DNA of 64,000 bases from an uncultured archaeon (GTDB lineage Archaea > Asgardarchaeota > Lokiarchaeia > Sigyniarchaeales > SOKP01). The translations under genes and the position numbers were made by a program. The stretch spans positions 99,700-163,699 of the forward strand of contig CAZDTP010000001.1 in the NCBI GenBank assembly GCA_964508365.1. Direction: 5' to 3'. Numbering within the stretch: the first letter of the stretch is position 1; the number at the start of each line of letters is the position of its first letter. Of this stretch, positions 27,822 through 36,679 are shown in pieces. A model generated the notes under the pieces. The model was not told the DNA's origin. It searched no databases and worked only from the letters and a program-made list of their open reading frames with translations.

Positions 27822-28604
27822 CTATTTCCTTTTTTCTAGATATTTTTTGATAATTAAATCACATATTTTCGAAGCAGGATCCGTATCACATTTCCAATTA
27901 GAGAATTCCGGAAAAGTGCCAGCATCTACTACATATAATTTATTTGTGTTAGTTTCTCTAACTAGATCAAGATGTCCAAATAACAGATTATATTTTTCCT
28001 TCCATTTTATAAGATATTTTTCTATTTCTTTATCGGATTCGATTAATTTAGTAGCTTGATGTTCATTTGCGAGAGGTATTTTTTCACATATACAGATTTC
28101 ATTTTCTATAAAATAAGCTAAGTAGTGAGTCCCTTTGATAAAATTTTCGAGATAGAGATAGTTTTCATTTAGAGTATCAAAATCTTGAAAAGAATTATAT
28201 ACTTTGACACCTTTACTTCCAGAACCAAAAATATGCTTTGAAATAAGAGGAAAACTTGACTCTGTAAGTTGACTTTTAAGAGTTTTAAGGGTGCCCATAA
28301 AAATCTTTGGACATAACAACCCTAAGTTTTCCATAGAAAAATGCGATTCAACACGATCTTTATGGACATAACTGATATTAGTATTTGGAATGACGGGGAT
28401 CATATTAGCTTCTAAAAAATAACCCGCATAAAGATAAAATAAGTTCTTAGATTTCAATATATAAAAATCCTTATTAAGTAACATTTCATTGACAATCAAA
28501 TCATTTAGCGTAAAAATTTTTGCTCTATGCCCACTACTTTCAAAGCATTTTTGAATTTCCTTAATGAATTTGCCTTTCTTTTTAGATAATATTCCAATAT
28601 TCAT
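27822..28604 (-). CDS. ATP-grasp protein, ITPK1/RimK-like, degenerate metal motif
   Basis: LISKHIFGSGSKGV, LENFIKG, HLDLV; VDAGTFPEF in place of D-x-N-x-x-P. Confidence 0.7.
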   Translation of the reverse strand: MNIGILSKKKGKFIKEIQKCFESSGHRAKIFTLNDLIVNEMLLNKDFYILKSKNLFYLYAGYFLEANMIPVIPNTNISYVHKDRVESHFSMENLGLLCPKIFMGTLKTLKSQLTESSFPLISKHIFGSGSKGVKVYNSFQDFDTLNENYLYLENFIKGTHYLAYFIENEICICEKIPLANEHQATKLIESDKEIEKYLIKWKEKYNLLFGHLDLVRETNTNKLYVVDAGTFPEFSNWKCDTDPASKICDLIIKKYLEKRK

Positions 28605-28618
28605 AGTTACTCTTATTC

Positions 28619-29437
28619 TTATTTTTTAGCTTGTTTGATTAAATAATCTCCTATAATTTTAGGACCGTTTTTTATGTAATTAAAATTGGGGGATGAATTT
28701 ATATCAGTCAAGAAAAATTTTCCATCTTTTGATTTTAAGAAATCCATTGAACTTAATTTTAATCCCAATGCTTCAGTAGCATTATAAGCTATTTCTGTTA
28801 ATTCGGGAATTTTCTCTATTTTTATTCTAGATTTCATTTTATCAGGATTTATTAAAACTGGTAATTGTCTGAAATAAAAAATGTCTTCACCAATTAGATA
28901 TACTTTATATTCCCATTTACTCTTTATAAAATCTTGAAAATACAAATGTGTGTATTTTGGGTAATTTCCGCTTGATTCATCAATAGCACGAATATCCACT
29001 ACTCTTAAATATCCCTCTTTTTTCTGAATTTGAGGATTAAATACATAATTTTCTTTGTCTATAATATTTTTGATTATGTATTCATTGAATGGAGGTGATT
29101 GTCCTACTGGATTAAGCGAAAAATTAGGAACTTGAATACCGGCTTTTCTTAAAACAATGCTATTTAAAAATCTATTGAAAGCAAGAGAAATACTCCTTGA
29201 AGAATTAATCACAGGAATGGTAGTCTTTTTCTCAATTAATTTCACTAAACTTAAAACTAGGTCTCCTTTTGCCTTCACAAAAAAAATATCTTCATCAAAA
29301 TTATAATTCGAGAAATCTATCATATAGTCTTCTTCGAGGTATATTGAAACATCTGCTTTAGTGTTAGCATATTTTAAGAATTGAATCGATTTTTTTTCTA
29401 AATGGTAACTATCCGTTATTAATCCTATTTTTATCAA
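28619..29437 (-). CDS. ATP-grasp protein, ITPK1-like inositol phosphate kinase candidate
   Basis: FQDFI..EYKVYLIGE, SMDFL and TDINSSPNF motifs. Confidence 0.7.
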   Translation of the reverse strand: MIKIGLITDSYHLEKKSIQFLKYANTKADVSIYLEEDYMIDFSNYNFDEDIFFVKAKGDLVLSLVKLIEKKTTIPVINSSRSISLAFNRFLNSIVLRKAGIQVPNFSLNPVGQSPPFNEYIIKNIIDKENYVFNPQIQKKEGYLRVVDIRAIDESSGNYPKYTHLYFQDFIKSKWEYKVYLIGEDIFYFRQLPVLINPDKMKSRIKIEKIPELTEIAYNATEALGLKLSSMDFLKSKDGKFFLTDINSSPNFNYIKNGPKIIGDYLIKQAKK

Positions 29438-29781
29438 ATAACCTACCCTAACTCAACGCAATCAATGAAAATAAAATCATCTACTTATGAATAGTATAAA
29501 ACTATGTTATTTTAAAGTATATAATAAAAAACAGAAATTAATTTAAATTCTCCTTGTTCTGTCTCTGTTTTTGGATTTCTTGTAAGATTTTTCCCTTATT
29601 TTTCGTTTAAGTTTCTATTTTTATAATCTAATATTCAAATAACATTAGTGATTTTATTATGAATTTAAGATACTTTTATGTTAACTTCCTTTGAATATAG
29701 AAGTTTTACTCGAACGTACTTTTCAATACATTTATATATTTTAATTTGTTTTTAAGAAATCAAATTGAAAGGGTTTTTTAA

Positions 29782-30693
29782 ATGGCGAATACTATAAAAA
29801 GAAAATATATTGGAGCCATTTGTAATAGAGATCTTGAAGTTTTAGAAAGCATCAAGAAGTTCTTAATTAAAAATTATAATATCACGATAGTTAATTTAAT
29901 GAAAAACGGATTAGAGTCCTTTAATACTAAATATCTAGAAAAGCGCTTAAAGAAATATCCGATTTCGTTTTTGATTATAAAACTTACAACTCAAGAGTTA
30001 AATGAAAAAATCTATCGAATTGTTAAAAAAACTTGTCCTGAAATACCTATTCTTAACGCGCTAGAATCCGTTCAAATATGTGAGAGCAGGCAAAACTCTT
30101 TTAATTTTATTAAACAAAATTCTAAAAAACTTCTAACACCACGCTCTTTTTCAACCAAATTAGAAGCAATTCATATTTCTCAAAAAGGTACACCAATTAT
30201 AGTAAAACTAAATTCTCATAACATTCCAGATTTGCCTAAGAACGATAGAATAATCGGTATCGCTAAAAATTATAGAGAATTACTTGAATTGACAAAAATC
30301 TATAATGAGAAAGAATTATTTTTCCAAGAATATTTAGGTGAACATGATATTCTCTATAAAATTTATGTAATAGGTAATTGGGTTGTTTCAATAACCTCGC
30401 ATAATCGTTTGCAGCAAATTAATCAATTATCTCCTCTAGAACTCCTCCATATTAGGATTCCAGTTGAAGAATCATTAAAGAAGAGGATTATTCGATTAGG
30501 TCGAAAGTTTGGTATGTCCGTCTTCGGAGTAGACTATATAATGACCGAGAAGGGACCTTACATTGTGGATATTAACGATTTTCCTAGCTTTAAGAGCGTA
30601 CCAGAAGGAGTAAGTTTAATTTCAGATCATATTTACAACGTAATAAATATGAGAGAAATGTATCAAAATGCATATGTTAAAGTAAAAAGCTAA
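29782..30693 (+). CDS. ATP-grasp protein, ITPK1-like inositol phosphate kinase candidate
   Basis: FQEYL...LYKIYVIG, FGVDYI and VDINDFPSF motifs. Confidence 0.75.
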   Translation: MANTIKRKYIGAICNRDLEVLESIKKFLIKNYNITIVNLMKNGLESFNTKYLEKRLKKYPISFLIIKLTTQELNEKIYRIVKKTCPEIPILNALESVQICESRQNSFNFIKQNSKKLLTPRSFSTKLEAIHISQKGTPIIVKLNSHNIPDLPKNDRIIGIAKNYRELLELTKIYNEKELFFQEYLGEHDILYKIYVIGNWVVSITSHNRLQQINQLSPLELLHIRIPVEESLKKRIIRLGRKFGMSVFGVDYIMTEKGPYIVDINDFPSFKSVPEGVSLISDHIYNVINMREMYQNAYVKVKS

Positions 30694-30726
30694 AATTCCA
30701 AATATATTAAATTTCGAGTATTTTTT

Positions 30727-31830
30727 TTATCGTTCTCTTCTATTTTCTAAAAATTCTATAAGCCGTTTTTTTGCAACATAATCATCTAATTGTTCTGGAG
30801 GGTGTTTATTAAAGAAGGAGCAAGCTGATTGCAAAATCCCTCCTATTTTGCGATCTTTAGCAATTTTTGAAACTCTAATACAATCAGCTATAATTCCTGC
30901 TGAATTATTACCATCCTCTACAAACATGGTAACATCAATTCGCACAGGAGCGCCACCAAAAATTCTCCCTTCTAATCTCATATAAGCCTCCTTTTGATTC
31001 TTTAAAAATGGGATATAATCTACAGCGGATATTCGAAATTCCAAATCATCCTTATTTGGTAGATTTGCTATTACTGCTTCAGTTTTAGATTGGCGTTTTC
31101 CTTTCTCATATATTAATTCACCATTAGATTGAGGGGTTAACAAATTGCAGAAATCCGATGATCCTCCCCAATCAAGCTGTATAGTCCTATCAAGAATTGC
31201 GCCCCGCATCGGAAAGAGATTTGCTAGCGATCGATGTATTATAGTCGCTCCTATTTGAGATTTAACATCGTCACCGATCAATGAAAGTTCTAATTTTTGA
31301 GCTTTTTCAACAATTTCTGAATCTTTAACTACATGTGAAGGCATACCATTAACCACACAAGCTCCAGCATCAAGGCTGGCAATAGCGTAGTATTTAACCG
31401 CTTCATGGCAGCCAGTTGGGAGCAAAATAACAGCAATATCAACATCCCGTTTTCTAAATTCTTCTACGATGTCTACGGGTTTTTGATTATCGTCTACAGG
31501 TATAATATCTTTAATATTACTCGTTAAACCATCTAAGATTGGACCTTTTAGGACAGGAGCATCTAAAAATCCCGGCTCAAATATTTTCATATTACAATTG
31601 GGTTCCATAAAAATAGCTTCACTTAAATCTCTGCCAATTTTATTAACATTAACATCAATACCAAGGACAAAATTTATATCTTCTACTCCATATTGAGTAA
31701 TTTCTGGTAATAAACCTATGATTTTATCTGGATTTTTCTTGTAATTCTCGACACCCGCAACTAATGCGCTTGCAACATCACCTACTCCGATAATTGCGAC
31801 TTTTATATCCCTTTTGGTCATTTTATTCAA
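30727..31830 (-). CDS. ino1: myo-Inositol-1-phosphate synthase (short prokaryotic type)
   Basis: GVGDVAS Rossmann, GDDVKSQIGATIIHR, SKT, D..NSAG and KHPP motifs. Confidence 0.92.
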   Translation of the reverse strand: MNKMTKRDIKVAIIGVGDVASALVAGVENYKKNPDKIIGLLPEITQYGVEDINFVLGIDVNVNKIGRDLSEAIFMEPNCNMKIFEPGFLDAPVLKGPILDGLTSNIKDIIPVDDNQKPVDIVEEFRKRDVDIAVILLPTGCHEAVKYYAIASLDAGACVVNGMPSHVVKDSEIVEKAQKLELSLIGDDVKSQIGATIIHRSLANLFPMRGAILDRTIQLDWGGSSDFCNLLTPQSNGELIYEKGKRQSKTEAVIANLPNKDDLEFRISAVDYIPFLKNQKEAYMRLEGRIFGGAPVRIDVTMFVEDGNNSAGIIADCIRVSKIAKDRKIGGILQSACSFFNKHPPEQLDDYVAKKRLIEFLENRRER

Positions 31831-31966
31831 CTTATTACTAAATTTTTAGTGTTCGCCGTTATAGTATCTATATTAATATTAAAAATTATCTAATTGAAGA
31901 TATCAATATTTTATATTTTTTATTATTTAATATCTCAATCCTATATTACAAACATTAGTAAAAATA

Positions 31967-32277
31967 ATGGACACAGAAGAAAAGAAAATTTACTTCGTTC
32001 TTTCTCCTCACATAAATTATTATCACTCTTATAGAAGTGATTCAAAAGGTGAAACTGGTTTTGGCAAGGATCTCGAGATGATGAGTGCAATTATCAACGA
32101 ATTATATAAAATAGAAGATAGGGGACTAGGCACAGTGCGTATAGGCAGGGATTATGGAGATACTTTCTTTTCTATTCAATTACAAAAAGAATACCATTAG
32201 AACAAGCTGGGGATGCTTTCAAATACTATGATCGCGAGATGTGGATAAAAATTATTGTAGAACAACAAAAGAAGTAG
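31967..32277 (+). pseudogene. Remnant of a larger glycoside hydrolase/deacetylase-like gene (N-terminus plus a probable C-terminal scrap)
   Basis: 77-aa ORF with HINYYHSYRSD motif stops at 32200; another frame continues PLEQAGDAFKYYDREMWIKIIVEQQKK* to 32277. Confidence 0.5.
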
Positions 32278-32304
32278 AAAAAAGAAAAAAGAGTATAATT
32301 TTAT

Positions 32305-33572
32305 TTATAAATTTACAGTTTCTTTTACTCTCAAAAATAGTGGAATCGAGGCTAGAAAAAAGATAGGAGCGAGTACGAATATCCAAGGACGGCCAAAAAA
32401 TGTAGCAACTATGCCTGCTGCGATAGAACCTATAATCTGAGATGCTGTGTTAACAATATTAAATATTCCTGTAAATTTTCCACGTTTATCCTCTGGTAAC
32501 AAATCCTGAGACCACGCATTCAATGGAGTTACTAATGCTAATACCCCTACTAATACGAATGGCAAACCAATCATAAATAGGATGTAATTACCTGAAGCAA
32601 ATGGCATTATAAAAAATCCTATGCTTACTATAAATATAGATATAGGTACGAATCTTTTTCGTCCAAATTTATCTGACAATCCTCCTAAATAATTGGTTGC
32701 GAGGAATAGAAATGGAAATGCGATAGCGATCCCTAATAAGAGTTGTAGAGTTGTGAGCCCTTGATCGAAGATGAAAATAAATAAAACGTCATAACCGAAG
32801 CAATACCTGATTGGAATATGAGAAATGCAATAAGAATTTTAAAGAATTCCTTTTGGGGTTTCAACTCTGTATAATTAAAAGTCTTCTTTAGCTCTGTAAA
32901 GAACTTTTTCTTCTCGGGAAGCTCAGAAACAGGTTTTTCTTCTATAAAGAAAAATCCTATAACTCCAACTGAAGCAAAAAGAAGTCCACCTATATACAAT
33001 AATAATATGTGCCCTTCCTGCGTAATAATCGTTCCATCAGCACCTGGGCGAGGATCAGGTATTCCAAATAATTCATTTCCTAGTAATAGGAATGCTACAC
33101 CAATTAATAGCCCAATGTAGCTAATTGAATTAATGATACCATTTGCTCGCCCCCTTTTTTCAACTTCGACTGTATCTGGAATAAGAGCTCTTTCAGCTAC
33201 GAGAAATGCATTTGAAGCAATGCCGATAATAAAAACATCAATTATTAAGCACAATCTATAATCCAATGACAATCCAAAAAACATCATAGCAATCCCGGCT
33301 ATGATTCCCAAAAGTAAATACGGCCGTCTACGACCAAATTTAGTCCTCGTATTATCGCTTAAAATCCCCCATACAAACATTGCTATGAGACCCATTGTCG
33401 CCGATAATGAAACCATAACCGAGATATATAGCTCGGGTAAAAAAAGTACGTGATCTATGAATGTATTGAAATAATTTTGTTCAAAAAAGAAGAAAAGGTA
33501 ATCTCCCATATAGAGCAATCCAATTAATAACACTTGTCTTCGAATAAATTTACTAAACGCTTTTTCTCTCAA
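32305..33572 (-). pseudogene. MFS sugar transporter split by a 1-nt frameshift
   Basis: Adding one T to the T4 run (plus-strand A4 at 32783-32786) joins the 279-aa and 124-aa ORFs through TFLFIFIFDQGLTTLQLLLGIAIAFPFLFLATNYLGGLSDKFGRK; SDNTRTKFGRRRP motif in N-half. Confidence 0.8.
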
Positions 33573-33686
33573 ATTAATATCTCCATTTTTTTTAAAGAAG
33601 TTATTATTTTTCTAAAATATTCAATAGATAAAGAAAGTATGCATTGAGGGAAAATTTAAGAATATTATGCGCTTCTTTATTTTTAA

Positions 33687-34583
33687 TTGATGATAAGAAA
33701 TGTCGTTTTTTCAGCTAGGGAAGATCATGAAGTAGTAAAAAGTATTATAAATAGGCTTAAAAATTTACCTGATGTTAACTTATACTTTCACGATCCCACA
33801 AAAAAGTTTTTTAACCTTTCCAGAATGCCTAAATCGATTAAAGAAGCAGATTTAATTATTGTTAAAGTGAGAAACGATTGTTCTATTGATTTGCTTCATT
33901 ACGCTAAAACAAACAAAATTCCAACGCTACATAATGTTGATACAGTTCTAATGTGCAAAAACAAAATATCCCTTGATTACGCTCTAAGAATGGTATTTAA
34001 AAACCATCCTCAAATTAGTAAAAAGTTTTCATTTCCTAACTCTTGGAATAATAATGCTACAGATATTCTTAAATTTAAAAGATGGGCTCTACCTAAACTT
34101 CCAATAGTAATTAAAAGTCATTATCAGCACGACAAATATAATAGATTTAACTTTTTAGTTAGAAAGATTGAAGAAGTAGACACATTTTGCAATAAGTATA
34201 AAAAGCTTTTATATTACGATGTTTATATTCAGAAATTTATTGAGTGTGATGGATTTGAAAGAAAGGTTTATGTAATAGGAGATAAAGTATTTGGCATTAT
34301 AAGAGAAAATCCGATTTATATATTTTTAAGAGATAAGCCAAGTAAAATTGATGTTGACAAAATTAAAAGGAAAGAATTTAAAATATCTGAAGAAATTAGA
34401 GAATTTGCTGAAATCTTATCAAAAGAACTTAAGCTTAAAATTTTTGGATTTGATTTAATAAAACTAACAGATAAGAATCGTTATTATCTTATCGATTTAA
34501 ACGATTTTCCTGGATTTAGAGGAATTAAAAACATAGAAAACACTCTATTCAGTTATTTGGTGGATTATATTAGAAATTTATAG
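33687..34583 (+). CDS. ATP-grasp protein, ITPK1-like inositol phosphate kinase candidate
   Basis: PIVIKSH, IQKFI...ERKVYVIGD, FGFDLI and IDLNDFPGF; the closest of the four to the ITPK1 consensus. Confidence 0.78.
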   Translation: MMIRNVVFSAREDHEVVKSIINRLKNLPDVNLYFHDPTKKFFNLSRMPKSIKEADLIIVKVRNDCSIDLLHYAKTNKIPTLHNVDTVLMCKNKISLDYALRMVFKNHPQISKKFSFPNSWNNNATDILKFKRWALPKLPIVIKSHYQHDKYNRFNFLVRKIEEVDTFCNKYKKLLYYDVYIQKFIECDGFERKVYVIGDKVFGIIRENPIYIFLRDKPSKIDVDKIKRKEFKISEEIREFAEILSKELKLKIFGFDLIKLTDKNRYYLIDLNDFPGFRGIKNIENTLFSYLVDYIRNL

Positions 34584-35437: not shown

Positions 35438-35923
35438 TCACTCGTACTTTTTCATTCCTTCATTAATACAATTTATTATCTCATCGCGTGCTTTTCGAAA
35501 ACCTTCAAGACCCTTCATTGAAGGATCTTCAATATCACCATTCTTTCCAGCAAATTCCCTTAATGTAAAAATCGGTTTATTCTCTAACTTAAAATTATCA
35601 TAGATTTCTTCTTTATGTTTCTCTGTTAAGGCGAGAATTAAGTCAGCTTCTTGAATTAATTCAGGATGTTTTTTTAAGTCAATTGAGAGAGAGTCATCTG
35701 AAAGAGGAATACCGATTTCCTTCATAACTAATTTCGCATCTAAAGAAATGAGCATCCCATCTCTAGCGTTTGAAGCGATACCACCGGAAGATACAGAAAC
35801 ATCCATTGCATTACGAGAAAAGAAATCTCTAAGAAATCCTTCAGACATCCTACTTCTTGCAGTATTAACGCTGCAAACAGTAAGAATTTTCGTATAAGGA
35901 AAGCGGTTATGTTTATGAGTCAT
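35438..35923 (-). CDS. Low-molecular-weight protein tyrosine phosphatase family
   Basis: P-loop CSVNTARS (C-x5-R) and DIEDP general-acid motif; lacks the resolving Cys pair of Trx-coupled ArsC. Confidence 0.85.
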   Translation of the reverse strand: MTHKHNRFPYTKILTVCSVNTARSRMSEGFLRDFFSRNAMDVSVSSGGIASNARDGMLISLDAKLVMKEIGIPLSDDSLSIDLKKHPELIQEADLILALTEKHKEEIYDNFKLENKPIFTLREFAGKNGDIEDPSMKGLEGFRKARDEIINCINEGMKKYE

Positions 35924-36007: not shown

Positions 36008-36679
36008 CTAGAAGAAGTCTTTAGTAGCAAACTTTATTCCTTTCTTCTTCATGTATTGGAGAGATTTAGAGATGTTACCCGGAGGTAAATCTATACCTCT
36101 AGTTAAATTTACTAAAAAATAGACCTCGAAACCAAAAGCTATCCCATCTAAAGCAGTAAAATAACAACAATAGTCCAGAGCTAGTCCACAAATAAAAATT
36201 CTTTTAATTTTCAGGGCTTTAAGATAACCTTTAAGTCCAGTTTCAGATTTTTTATCATTTTCAATAAAGCCTGAATAACTATCTACCTCCGGATTATAAC
36301 CTTTACGGATTATGGCGTGAGCGAGATCAATATTCAATTTATCATGAAACTGTGCTCCTTTTGTACCTTGTACACAGTGATCTGGCCATAATACGGGACC
36401 AATACCCTCAGATTGAAATTCATCACCTGGATTTTTATTATTATAGTTACTAGCAAACGATTTATGATTTTTGGGATGCCAATCCTGTGTCAATATGATC
36501 TTTCCATTATTCTCTTTAAAAATCTTAGAGATTTGATTTATACTATCAATTATTTGATCGCCTTCATCGACAGGTAAAGCCCCACCCGGCATGAAATCAT
36601 TTTGCATATCAATAATAATCAGTGCATTAGTATTATCAATATGCATATTTTTTTGATGATATAGTTTCTCAAGGCTCAT
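36008..36679 (-). CDS. pncA: Nicotinamidase/pyrazinamidase
   Basis: IDMQNDF, DWHP, WPDHC, RKG..YSGF and GLALDYC motifs. Confidence 0.93.
   Translation of the reverse strand: MSLEKLYHQKNMHIDNTNALIIIDMQNDFMPGGALPVDEGDQIIDSINQISKIFKENNGKIILTQDWHPKNHKSFASNYNNKNPGDEFQSEGIGPVLWPDHCVQGTKGAQFHDKLNIDLAHAIIRKGYNPEVDSYSGFIENDKKSETGLKGYLKALKIKRIFICGLALDYCCYFTALDGIAFGFEVYFLVNLTRGIDLPPGNISKSLQYMKKKGIKFATKDFF

Follow-up and report, generated by a model that had tools for sequence, protein, structure and literature searches.

The ino1 locus

The window analysed here is a 64,000-nt stretch of contig CAZDTP010000001.1 (assembly GCA_964508365.1), which belongs to a 4.07-Mb metagenome-assembled genome (MAG), 100% complete, of a Loki-type Asgard archaeon; near-identical proteins are filed at NCBI under Lokiarchaeota or Promethearchaeota. 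Between positions 27822 and 34583 of the window lies ino1, a predicted myo-inositol-3-phosphate synthase (MIPS) gene, together with four genes for ATP-grasp proteins that we call K1 to K4; three of these (K1–K3) are located on one side of ino1 and one (K4) on the other. A prediction made earlier from the DNA letters, referred to below as the original prediction, had described an ino1 gene flanked by four ATP-grasp open reading frames (ORFs), and this description is borne out exactly, down to the coordinates collected in Table 1. The motifs quoted at that time are also found in the translations: K3 contains DINDFPSF, K4 contains DLNDFPGF and K2 contains DINSSPNF, and the element K-[VI]-Y-[VL]-I-G is present in all three. 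The stretch of K1 that corresponds to the D-x-N motif reads VVDAGTFPEF. The regions upstream of K2/K3, ino1 and K4 share no operator-like repeat, and only AT-rich chance matches are found among them.

Table 1. Features of the ino1 locus, with positions counted from the first nucleotide of the window
Feature	Position	Strand	Remarks
K1, ATP-grasp, non-canonical	27822-28604	-	260 aa; second gene of K2-K1 bicistron
K2, divergent ATP-grasp paralogue	28619-29437	-	272 aa; first gene of bicistron
AT-rich divergent intergenic region, K2/K3	29438-29781		344 nt
K3, predicted ITPK1-family kinase	29782-30693	+	303 aa
ino1, predicted myo-inositol-3-phosphate synthase	30727-31830	-	367 aa; convergent with K3
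Gene remnant (first ~91 codons of ~950-aa gene)	31958-32242	+	found by tblastn
MFS transporter gene, frameshifted	32305-33581	-	two ORF pieces, both matching MFS_1
K4, predicted ITPK1-family kinase	33687-34583	+	298 aa

ino1, K3 and K4

The ino1 product scores 76.7 bits on PF01658 (cut-off 27 bits) and matches Ino1 of M. tuberculosis (1gr0) over its full length, residues 7–361, at 3.3e-79. Its score on TIGR03450 is 293 bits, which is under the equivalog cut-off of 638. Judged by these profile matches, the product is a genuine MIPS of the actinobacterial short type, and no other MIPS is encoded in the genome. The original prediction that no DIPPS or IPCT gene is adjacent to the locus holds as well, since the contig carries no CDP-alcohol phosphotransferase of the DIPPS or AIPS type; the five CDP-alcohol phosphotransferases of the genome are all located on other contigs, as are its two inositol monophosphatases (IMPases).

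Two of the four ATP-grasp proteins are recognized by the Pfam model for ITPK1 (PF05770, Ins134_P3_kin), which has a gathering threshold of 23 bits: K3 scores 33.7 bits and K4 scores 46.0 bits. Profiles built from orthologs and compared with the PDB give the same picture. With K4, the maize, Arabidopsis and human ITPK1 structures are found at 9e-13 to 3e-10 and RimK at 2.8e-4, while with K3 the top nine matches are ITPK4 or ITPK1, all ahead of RimK. The comparison of PF05770 with RimK that had been proposed as a check on the original prediction thus places the ITPK1 type ahead for both proteins. At the residue level, K193, D251, D263 and N265 are invariant in K3, and K193, D256, D270 and N272 in K4, where R206 is invariant too. 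These positions align with K199, D281, D295 and N297 of human ITPK1, which are the catalytic Lys and the Mg ligands. In K3, R156 is also invariant, and it corresponds to the Arg156 reported for LcIKC, a Lokiarchaeum homologue (PMC6900528). The two proteins are each other's closest relatives, with an hhalign E value of 1.7e-20 and an IQ-TREE support of 89. On the basis of these profile, residue and tree data, K3 and K4 are predicted to be ITPK1-family kinases and sister paralogues.

K2 and K1

The position of K2 is less clear-cut. It scores 19.0 bits on PF05770, under the threshold, and 21.1 bits on the Pfam RimK domain model (PF08443), barely over its cut-off of 21 bits. The latter model does not discriminate between the two families, because K4, the best ITPK1 relative, also passes it with 26.2 bits. 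On the NCBIfam model TIGR00768 (rimK_fam), for which the cut-off is 143.4 bits, the scores are 44.5 bits for K2, 27.6 for K1, 42.4 for K4 and 22.7 for K3. K2 retains K178, D232, D245 and N247. In hhalign comparisons it matches K4 with an E value of 1e-12 over 248 columns and the RimK of the same genome with 2.6e-8 over 169 columns; searched against the PDB, its profile finds ArgX (3vpb) first at 1e-3 and the Entamoeba ITPK1 at 0.04. The AlphaFold2 (AF2) model of K2 is poor, with a predicted local distance difference test (pLDDT) score of 69.5 that falls below 50 in the central domain. By profile and by tree, K2 ranks as near to RimK/LysX as to ITPK1.

K1 has no PF05770 match and only a weak match to ATP-grasp_3 (22.5 bits). 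Among its orthologs the position equivalent to Lys199 of human ITPK1 varies (L/N/T), and an invariant Gly229 takes the place of the Asn, so that the motif reads D-x-G. The glycine-rich loop, K123, E153, D213 and D227 are all retained. The D-x-G motif occurs together with a G-x-H motif as the signature of a wider subfamily with 46 representatives at E<=1e-10, some of which come from bacterial MAGs. The AF2 model of K1 has a pLDDT of 85.8, and its fold matches LysX/ArgX with a Z score of 24.0 and RimK with 22.8; LysX, ArgX, RimK and synapsin together span Z scores of 21–24, and ITPK1 is absent among the best 50 fold matches listed. The K1 profile likewise finds ArgX (3vpb) first in the PDB, with human ITPK1 at ~0.5. 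In hhalign, K1 is matched to K2 at 3.7e-8 and to the RimK of the genome at 1.7e-4. The NCBI annotation pipeline (PGAP) labels K1 orthologs "RimK family alpha-L-glutamate ligase". A metagenome scan with a single K1-like protein, P0179, returned one weak 52-residue match only, and the look-alikes of K1 and K2 in the ESM Atlas, which lie where RimK and ITPK meet, favour neither. The original prediction of four ITPK1-like genes is therefore retained for K3 and K4, on the evidence of PF05770, the PDB profiles and the residues, and not for K2, with its 19.0 bits and ArgX in first place, or for K1, which PF05770 does not match.

A related set of genes was encountered outside the cluster. In a distant relative, at L119:10028-12643 (Promethearchaeota CR_4), a K2-like protein of 243 aa, a K3-like protein of 307 aa (PF05770, 23 bits) and a third ORF of 301 aa are encoded between radical-SAM genes, and no ino1 is found nearby.

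Phylogeny and the RimK/ITPK boundary

The tree was computed with IQ-TREE under the posterior mean site frequency (PMSF) model, and its anchors are Pfam-labelled groups and the RimK of the genome only. One branch, supported at 99*, sets off a RimK clan with E-V-N motifs, to which the RimK of the genome belongs and in which no K1, K2, K3 or K4 sequence is found. A phylogeny within RimK/LysX, which had been named beforehand as grounds for giving up the original prediction, is therefore not what the tree returns. The clades of K2 and of the K1-like proteins lie next to the RimK clan and away from K3, K4 and the hub family described below, with a Shimodaira–Hasegawa-like approximate likelihood ratio test (SH-aLRT) value of 89, unstarred. 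That K1 and K2 are kinases is not established by the tree. A first tree, made with FastTree, separated K3 from K4 and came with long-branch warnings; it was set aside, and the PMSF tree recovers K3 and K4 together.

Profile comparisons reveal why the boundary is difficult to draw. A family of prokaryotic ATP-grasp proteins of ~250–320 aa, which we call hub A7, matches both PF05770 and PF08443. Its full-length hhalign E values are 3.8e-42 with K4, 3.1e-32 with K1 and 1.7e-28 with K2, and 1.2e-25 with the RimK of the genome. Since the hub is close to K4, K1, K2 and RimK alike, the boundary between RimK and ITPK is a continuum; and since it is equally close to the genome's RimK, a match to it does not settle whether a protein is a kinase or a ligase.

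Distribution and inheritance of the cluster

PF05770 proteins are found in 64 of 68 genomes of the family to which the archaeon belongs, in one of six genomes of the sister family and in none of the 225 genomes that represent the other Asgard families sampled. The gene order K4–(MFS gene and/or a ~950-aa gene)–ino1–K3–K2–K1 recurs in 79 species-level genomes, and because the same order is seen so many times, the arrangement is not due to chance. The synteny comparison across Asgard genomes that had been suggested for the original prediction accordingly shows a gene order that is conserved within one Lokiarchaeal family. The spacing of the bicistron is conserved too: in the window 14 nt separate the stop codon of K2 from the start of K1, and the median in 77 loci is also 14 nt.

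In the genera g3, g4 and g8 the flanking genes and K4 are kept, and K1, K2, K3 and this ino1 are jointly missing, with weak cross-hits only. Four of the five block-less genomes sampled from these genera carry a differently scoring MIPS elsewhere. Judged by the joint absence of the four genes where the flanks stay, K1-K2-K3-ino1 behaves as one heritable block. On this point the clustered multi-kinase system for inositol phosphate (InsP) synthesis that had been put forward is upheld in part: the link to ino1, which is gained and lost with K1, K2 and K3 as a block, and the assignments of K3 and K4 stand, and the assignment of K1 and K2 to ITPK1 is not supported.

Most relatives appear to have a further gene at the K1 end of the cluster. 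Directly downstream of K1, at L028:4187-5155 (-), a HAD-family phosphatase of 322 aa is encoded, and a gap of ~1 kb, which matches the size of the HAD gene, is present in 56 of the 70 loci having both K1 and FKBP. The phosphatase is missing from the window, where the gap from K1 to FKBP is 32 nt, and no ortholog occurs in the genome.

Several observations on individual loci were made along the way. In genus g6, three tandem MIPS-like genes are found beside K3 (L030:13981-17453), with 31%, 41% and 77% identity to the ino1 of the window, and this triple array may relate to the two inositol-3-phosphate synthase (IPS) genes described for Lokiarchaeum in 2019. A 96%-identical K2 is located on a contig deposited as "Candidatus Nanopelagicaceae bacterium" (L041, DATKTW010000070.1), and several other contigs that bear the locus carry the names Hermod-, Hod- or Thorarchaeota. 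These odd taxon labels probably stem from errors in binning or labelling and not from gene transfer.

Proposed pathway and alternatives

We propose that the locus is a lipid-independent inositol phosphate module, a reading to which we assign a probability of about 0.7. As a member of its family, the ino1 MIPS would convert glucose-6-phosphate to inositol 3-phosphate, Ins(3)P. K3 and K4 would then add further phosphates with ATP, as suggested by the family they belong to, by catalytic residues that are all in place and by the partial activity reported for a Lokiarchaeum homologue in yeast. The K2-K1 pair may extend or edit the product; K2 would probably be one more kinase, with another ring specificity, and K1 either its partner subunit or an enzyme that handles metal and phosphate in an altered way. 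Searches of the genome found no member of the IPK family (IPMK/IP6K), no IPK1 2-kinase, no SPX domain and no His_Phos_2 domain of the MINPP or PPIP5K type. With neither IPK1 nor IPMK/IP6K present, the formation of InsP6 would require that one of the paralogues phosphorylate position 2. It is tempting, though speculative and on balance improbable, to see in K2-K1, next to which HAD appears to be encoded in most relatives, an unrecognized pair of InsP enzymes, for example the 2-kinase needed for InsP6 where IPK1 is absent. If so, the K1-like subfamily with its D-x-G and G-x-H motifs, which extends to bacteria, would represent a new catalytic class of ATP-grasp enzymes.

Several points weigh against an inositol phosphate module. 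The rescue obtained with the Lokiarchaeum protein was weak, and the yeast host itself contributes Ipk2 and Ipk1. None of the tests that were run assigns K2 or K1 to ITPK1. Gene order alone is weak evidence, because the flanking FKBP, radical SAM, UppP, LMW-PTP and PncA genes are equally syntenic. Finally, the HAD phosphatase, an intact MFS frame and the ~950-aa gene are dispensable, as all three have been lost in this genome.

The alternative that we take most seriously, while still regarding it as doubtful, is that only K3 and K4 are kinases and that K2 and K1 are ligases of the RimK/LysX/MptN type, or carry out other ATP-grasp chemistry on an inositol-derived or unrelated carboxylate. ArgX (3vpb) as the first PDB match of both profiles, the LysX/ArgX and RimK folds at Z scores of 24 and 22.8 with no ITPK1 in the best 50 listed for the K1 model, and the PGAP name given to K1 orthologs all point in this direction, as does the attachment of the K2 and K1-like clades to the RimK clan in the IQ-TREE analysis. 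The best NCBIfam model for K1 and K2 is also rimK_fam; however, their 27.6 and 44.5 bits are to be read against a cut-off of 143, and K4 scores alike. K2 carries D-x-N where the RimK clan has E-x-N, neither protein is nested inside that clan, and hhalign places K2 nearer to K4, and K1 nearer to K2, than either is to RimK. In addition, the inheritance of K1 and K2 is strictly tied to that of ino1 and K3. A different possibility, which we consider unlikely, is that K1 is a non-catalytic pseudoenzyme with a structural or regulatory role as partner of K2. Such a role would be consistent with the loss of the Lys199 equivalent and of the Asn Mg ligand, and with the translational coupling of K1 to K2 across a fixed 14-nt spacer. 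However, the D-x-G and G-x-H motifs hold throughout a wide subfamily with bacterial members, and the glycine-rich loop and the four residues listed with it above are kept, so that the pattern in K1 looks like altered chemistry and not like decay.

The clustering itself could be no more than inherited synteny, with ino1 feeding inositol lipids or solutes and the ATP-grasp proteins acting on other substrates in no shared pathway. Unrelated neighbours (FKBP, radical SAM, UppP and PncA) do hold their order in most loci, and the five CDP-alcohol phosphotransferases and two IMPases encoded elsewhere could use Ins(3)P. This explanation is nevertheless very improbable in view of the K1-K2-K3-ino1 unit, which comes and goes while the flanks remain, of the ino1 in that unit, which differs in type from the MIPS of block-less genomes, and of the family of K3 and K4, whose only known substrates are inositol phosphates.

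Accessory and neighbouring genes

Two features between ino1 and K4, the broken MFS transporter gene and the 91-codon remnant, had been overlooked in the original prediction. The two frames of the MFS gene overlap at 32748-32784, with the break near 32785, and compared with its counterpart in L042, a relative with 91% identity over the region, the gene has a 1-nt deletion. In relatives it is intact, as a single ORF of 424–462 aa. The broken frame is either a pseudogene or the result of an assembly indel. The remnant has 72% identity (tblastn) to residues 1–91 of a 948-aa ORF in L045. In many relatives the full gene of ~950 aa (for example, L027:9064-11934) separates ino1 from the MFS gene or from K4. 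Conserved as an accessory of the cluster, it matches no Pfam family, and its presence there is unexplained.

Beyond K4, the gene at 36008-36679 (-) that had been called an isochorismatase encodes a PncA-type nicotinamidase (NF008623, 220.9 bits, above the cut-off), and its neighbour at 35438-35923 (-) encodes a protein resembling low-molecular-weight protein tyrosine phosphatase (LMW-PTP) and ArsC. In most genomes both keep their place beside the cluster, with no evident link to inositol. The flanking UppP, LMW-PTP/ArsC-like and PncA genes look functionally unrelated to the cluster.

Comparison with known systems

RimK, LysX and ArgX (3vpb, 5k2m and 4iwx; PF08443 and TIGR00768) are of the same size as K1 and K2, with which they appear to share a three-domain ATP-grasp fold; superposition of the K1 model gives Z scores of 23–24 and a root-mean-square deviation of ~2.8 Å. 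Where these ligases have E-x-N, however, K2 has D-x-N and K1 has D-x-G. K1 and K2 also differ from them in lying outside the RimK clan, in scoring far below the NCBIfam cut-off, and in a locus that has neither a LysW-type carrier nor a ribosomal S6 context. The hub family A7, to which K4, K1 and K2 are close, consists of members without known function.

The eukaryotic ITPK1 enzymes (human, 2q7d/2odt; maize, 7tn6; Arabidopsis, 8oxe; Entamoeba, 1z2n) share with K3 and K4 the elements Q-x-F-I...K-V-Y-V-I-G and D-x-N-x-F-P-G, as well as the catalytic Lys and the three Mg ligands. The similarity detected by HMMER is confined to the C-terminal half, the N-terminal region of the substrate lid being unalignable, and K3 and K4 are shorter, at ~300 aa. 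The setting also differs, as the partner enzymes IPK1, IPMK and PPIP5K are absent from this genome.

The closest precedent is the work of Desfougères et al. (2019, PNAS; PMC6900528). Four ITPK1 homologues, LcIKA–LcIKD, are described there in Lokiarchaeum GC14_75 flanking IPS genes, Ins(3)P is proposed as the substrate and a soluble route is inferred; one of the four, LcIKC, partly and weakly restores InsP6 in yeast plc1-delta. ITPK1 homologues beside IPS as a lipid-independent route to InsP were therefore already published in 2019, and later papers merely cite the Lokiarchaeum result. Published work has drawn on the Lokiarchaeal ITPK1 to argue that soluble InsP synthesis predates eukaryotes. 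Our data set limits on that argument: the genes occur in one Lokiarchaeal family (64/68), with one genome of six in the sister family and none of 225 in the other Asgard families sampled; two of the four clustered ATP-grasp proteins pass the ITPK1 family tests; and the genome encodes neither a 2-kinase nor any of the known InsP reader or pyrophosphate enzymes that were searched for. A literature search found no paper on the K2-K1 pair, which is the part of the locus worth bench work.

The locus of the window and those of Lokiarchaeum differ in detail. One ino1 is present here, whereas the account of Lokiarchaeum gives two IPS genes with two kinase pairs, and all four of its kinases are counted there as ITPK1 homologues, whereas here K3 and K4 alone pass the family tests. 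Among the individual proteins, the correspondence between the two sets is drawn from Arg156 alone, which pairs LcIKC with K3. The plan that emerges is nonetheless the same in both organisms, with ITPK1 homologues flanking inositol-3-phosphate synthase (PMC6900528) and a soluble route from Ins(3)P proposed for each.

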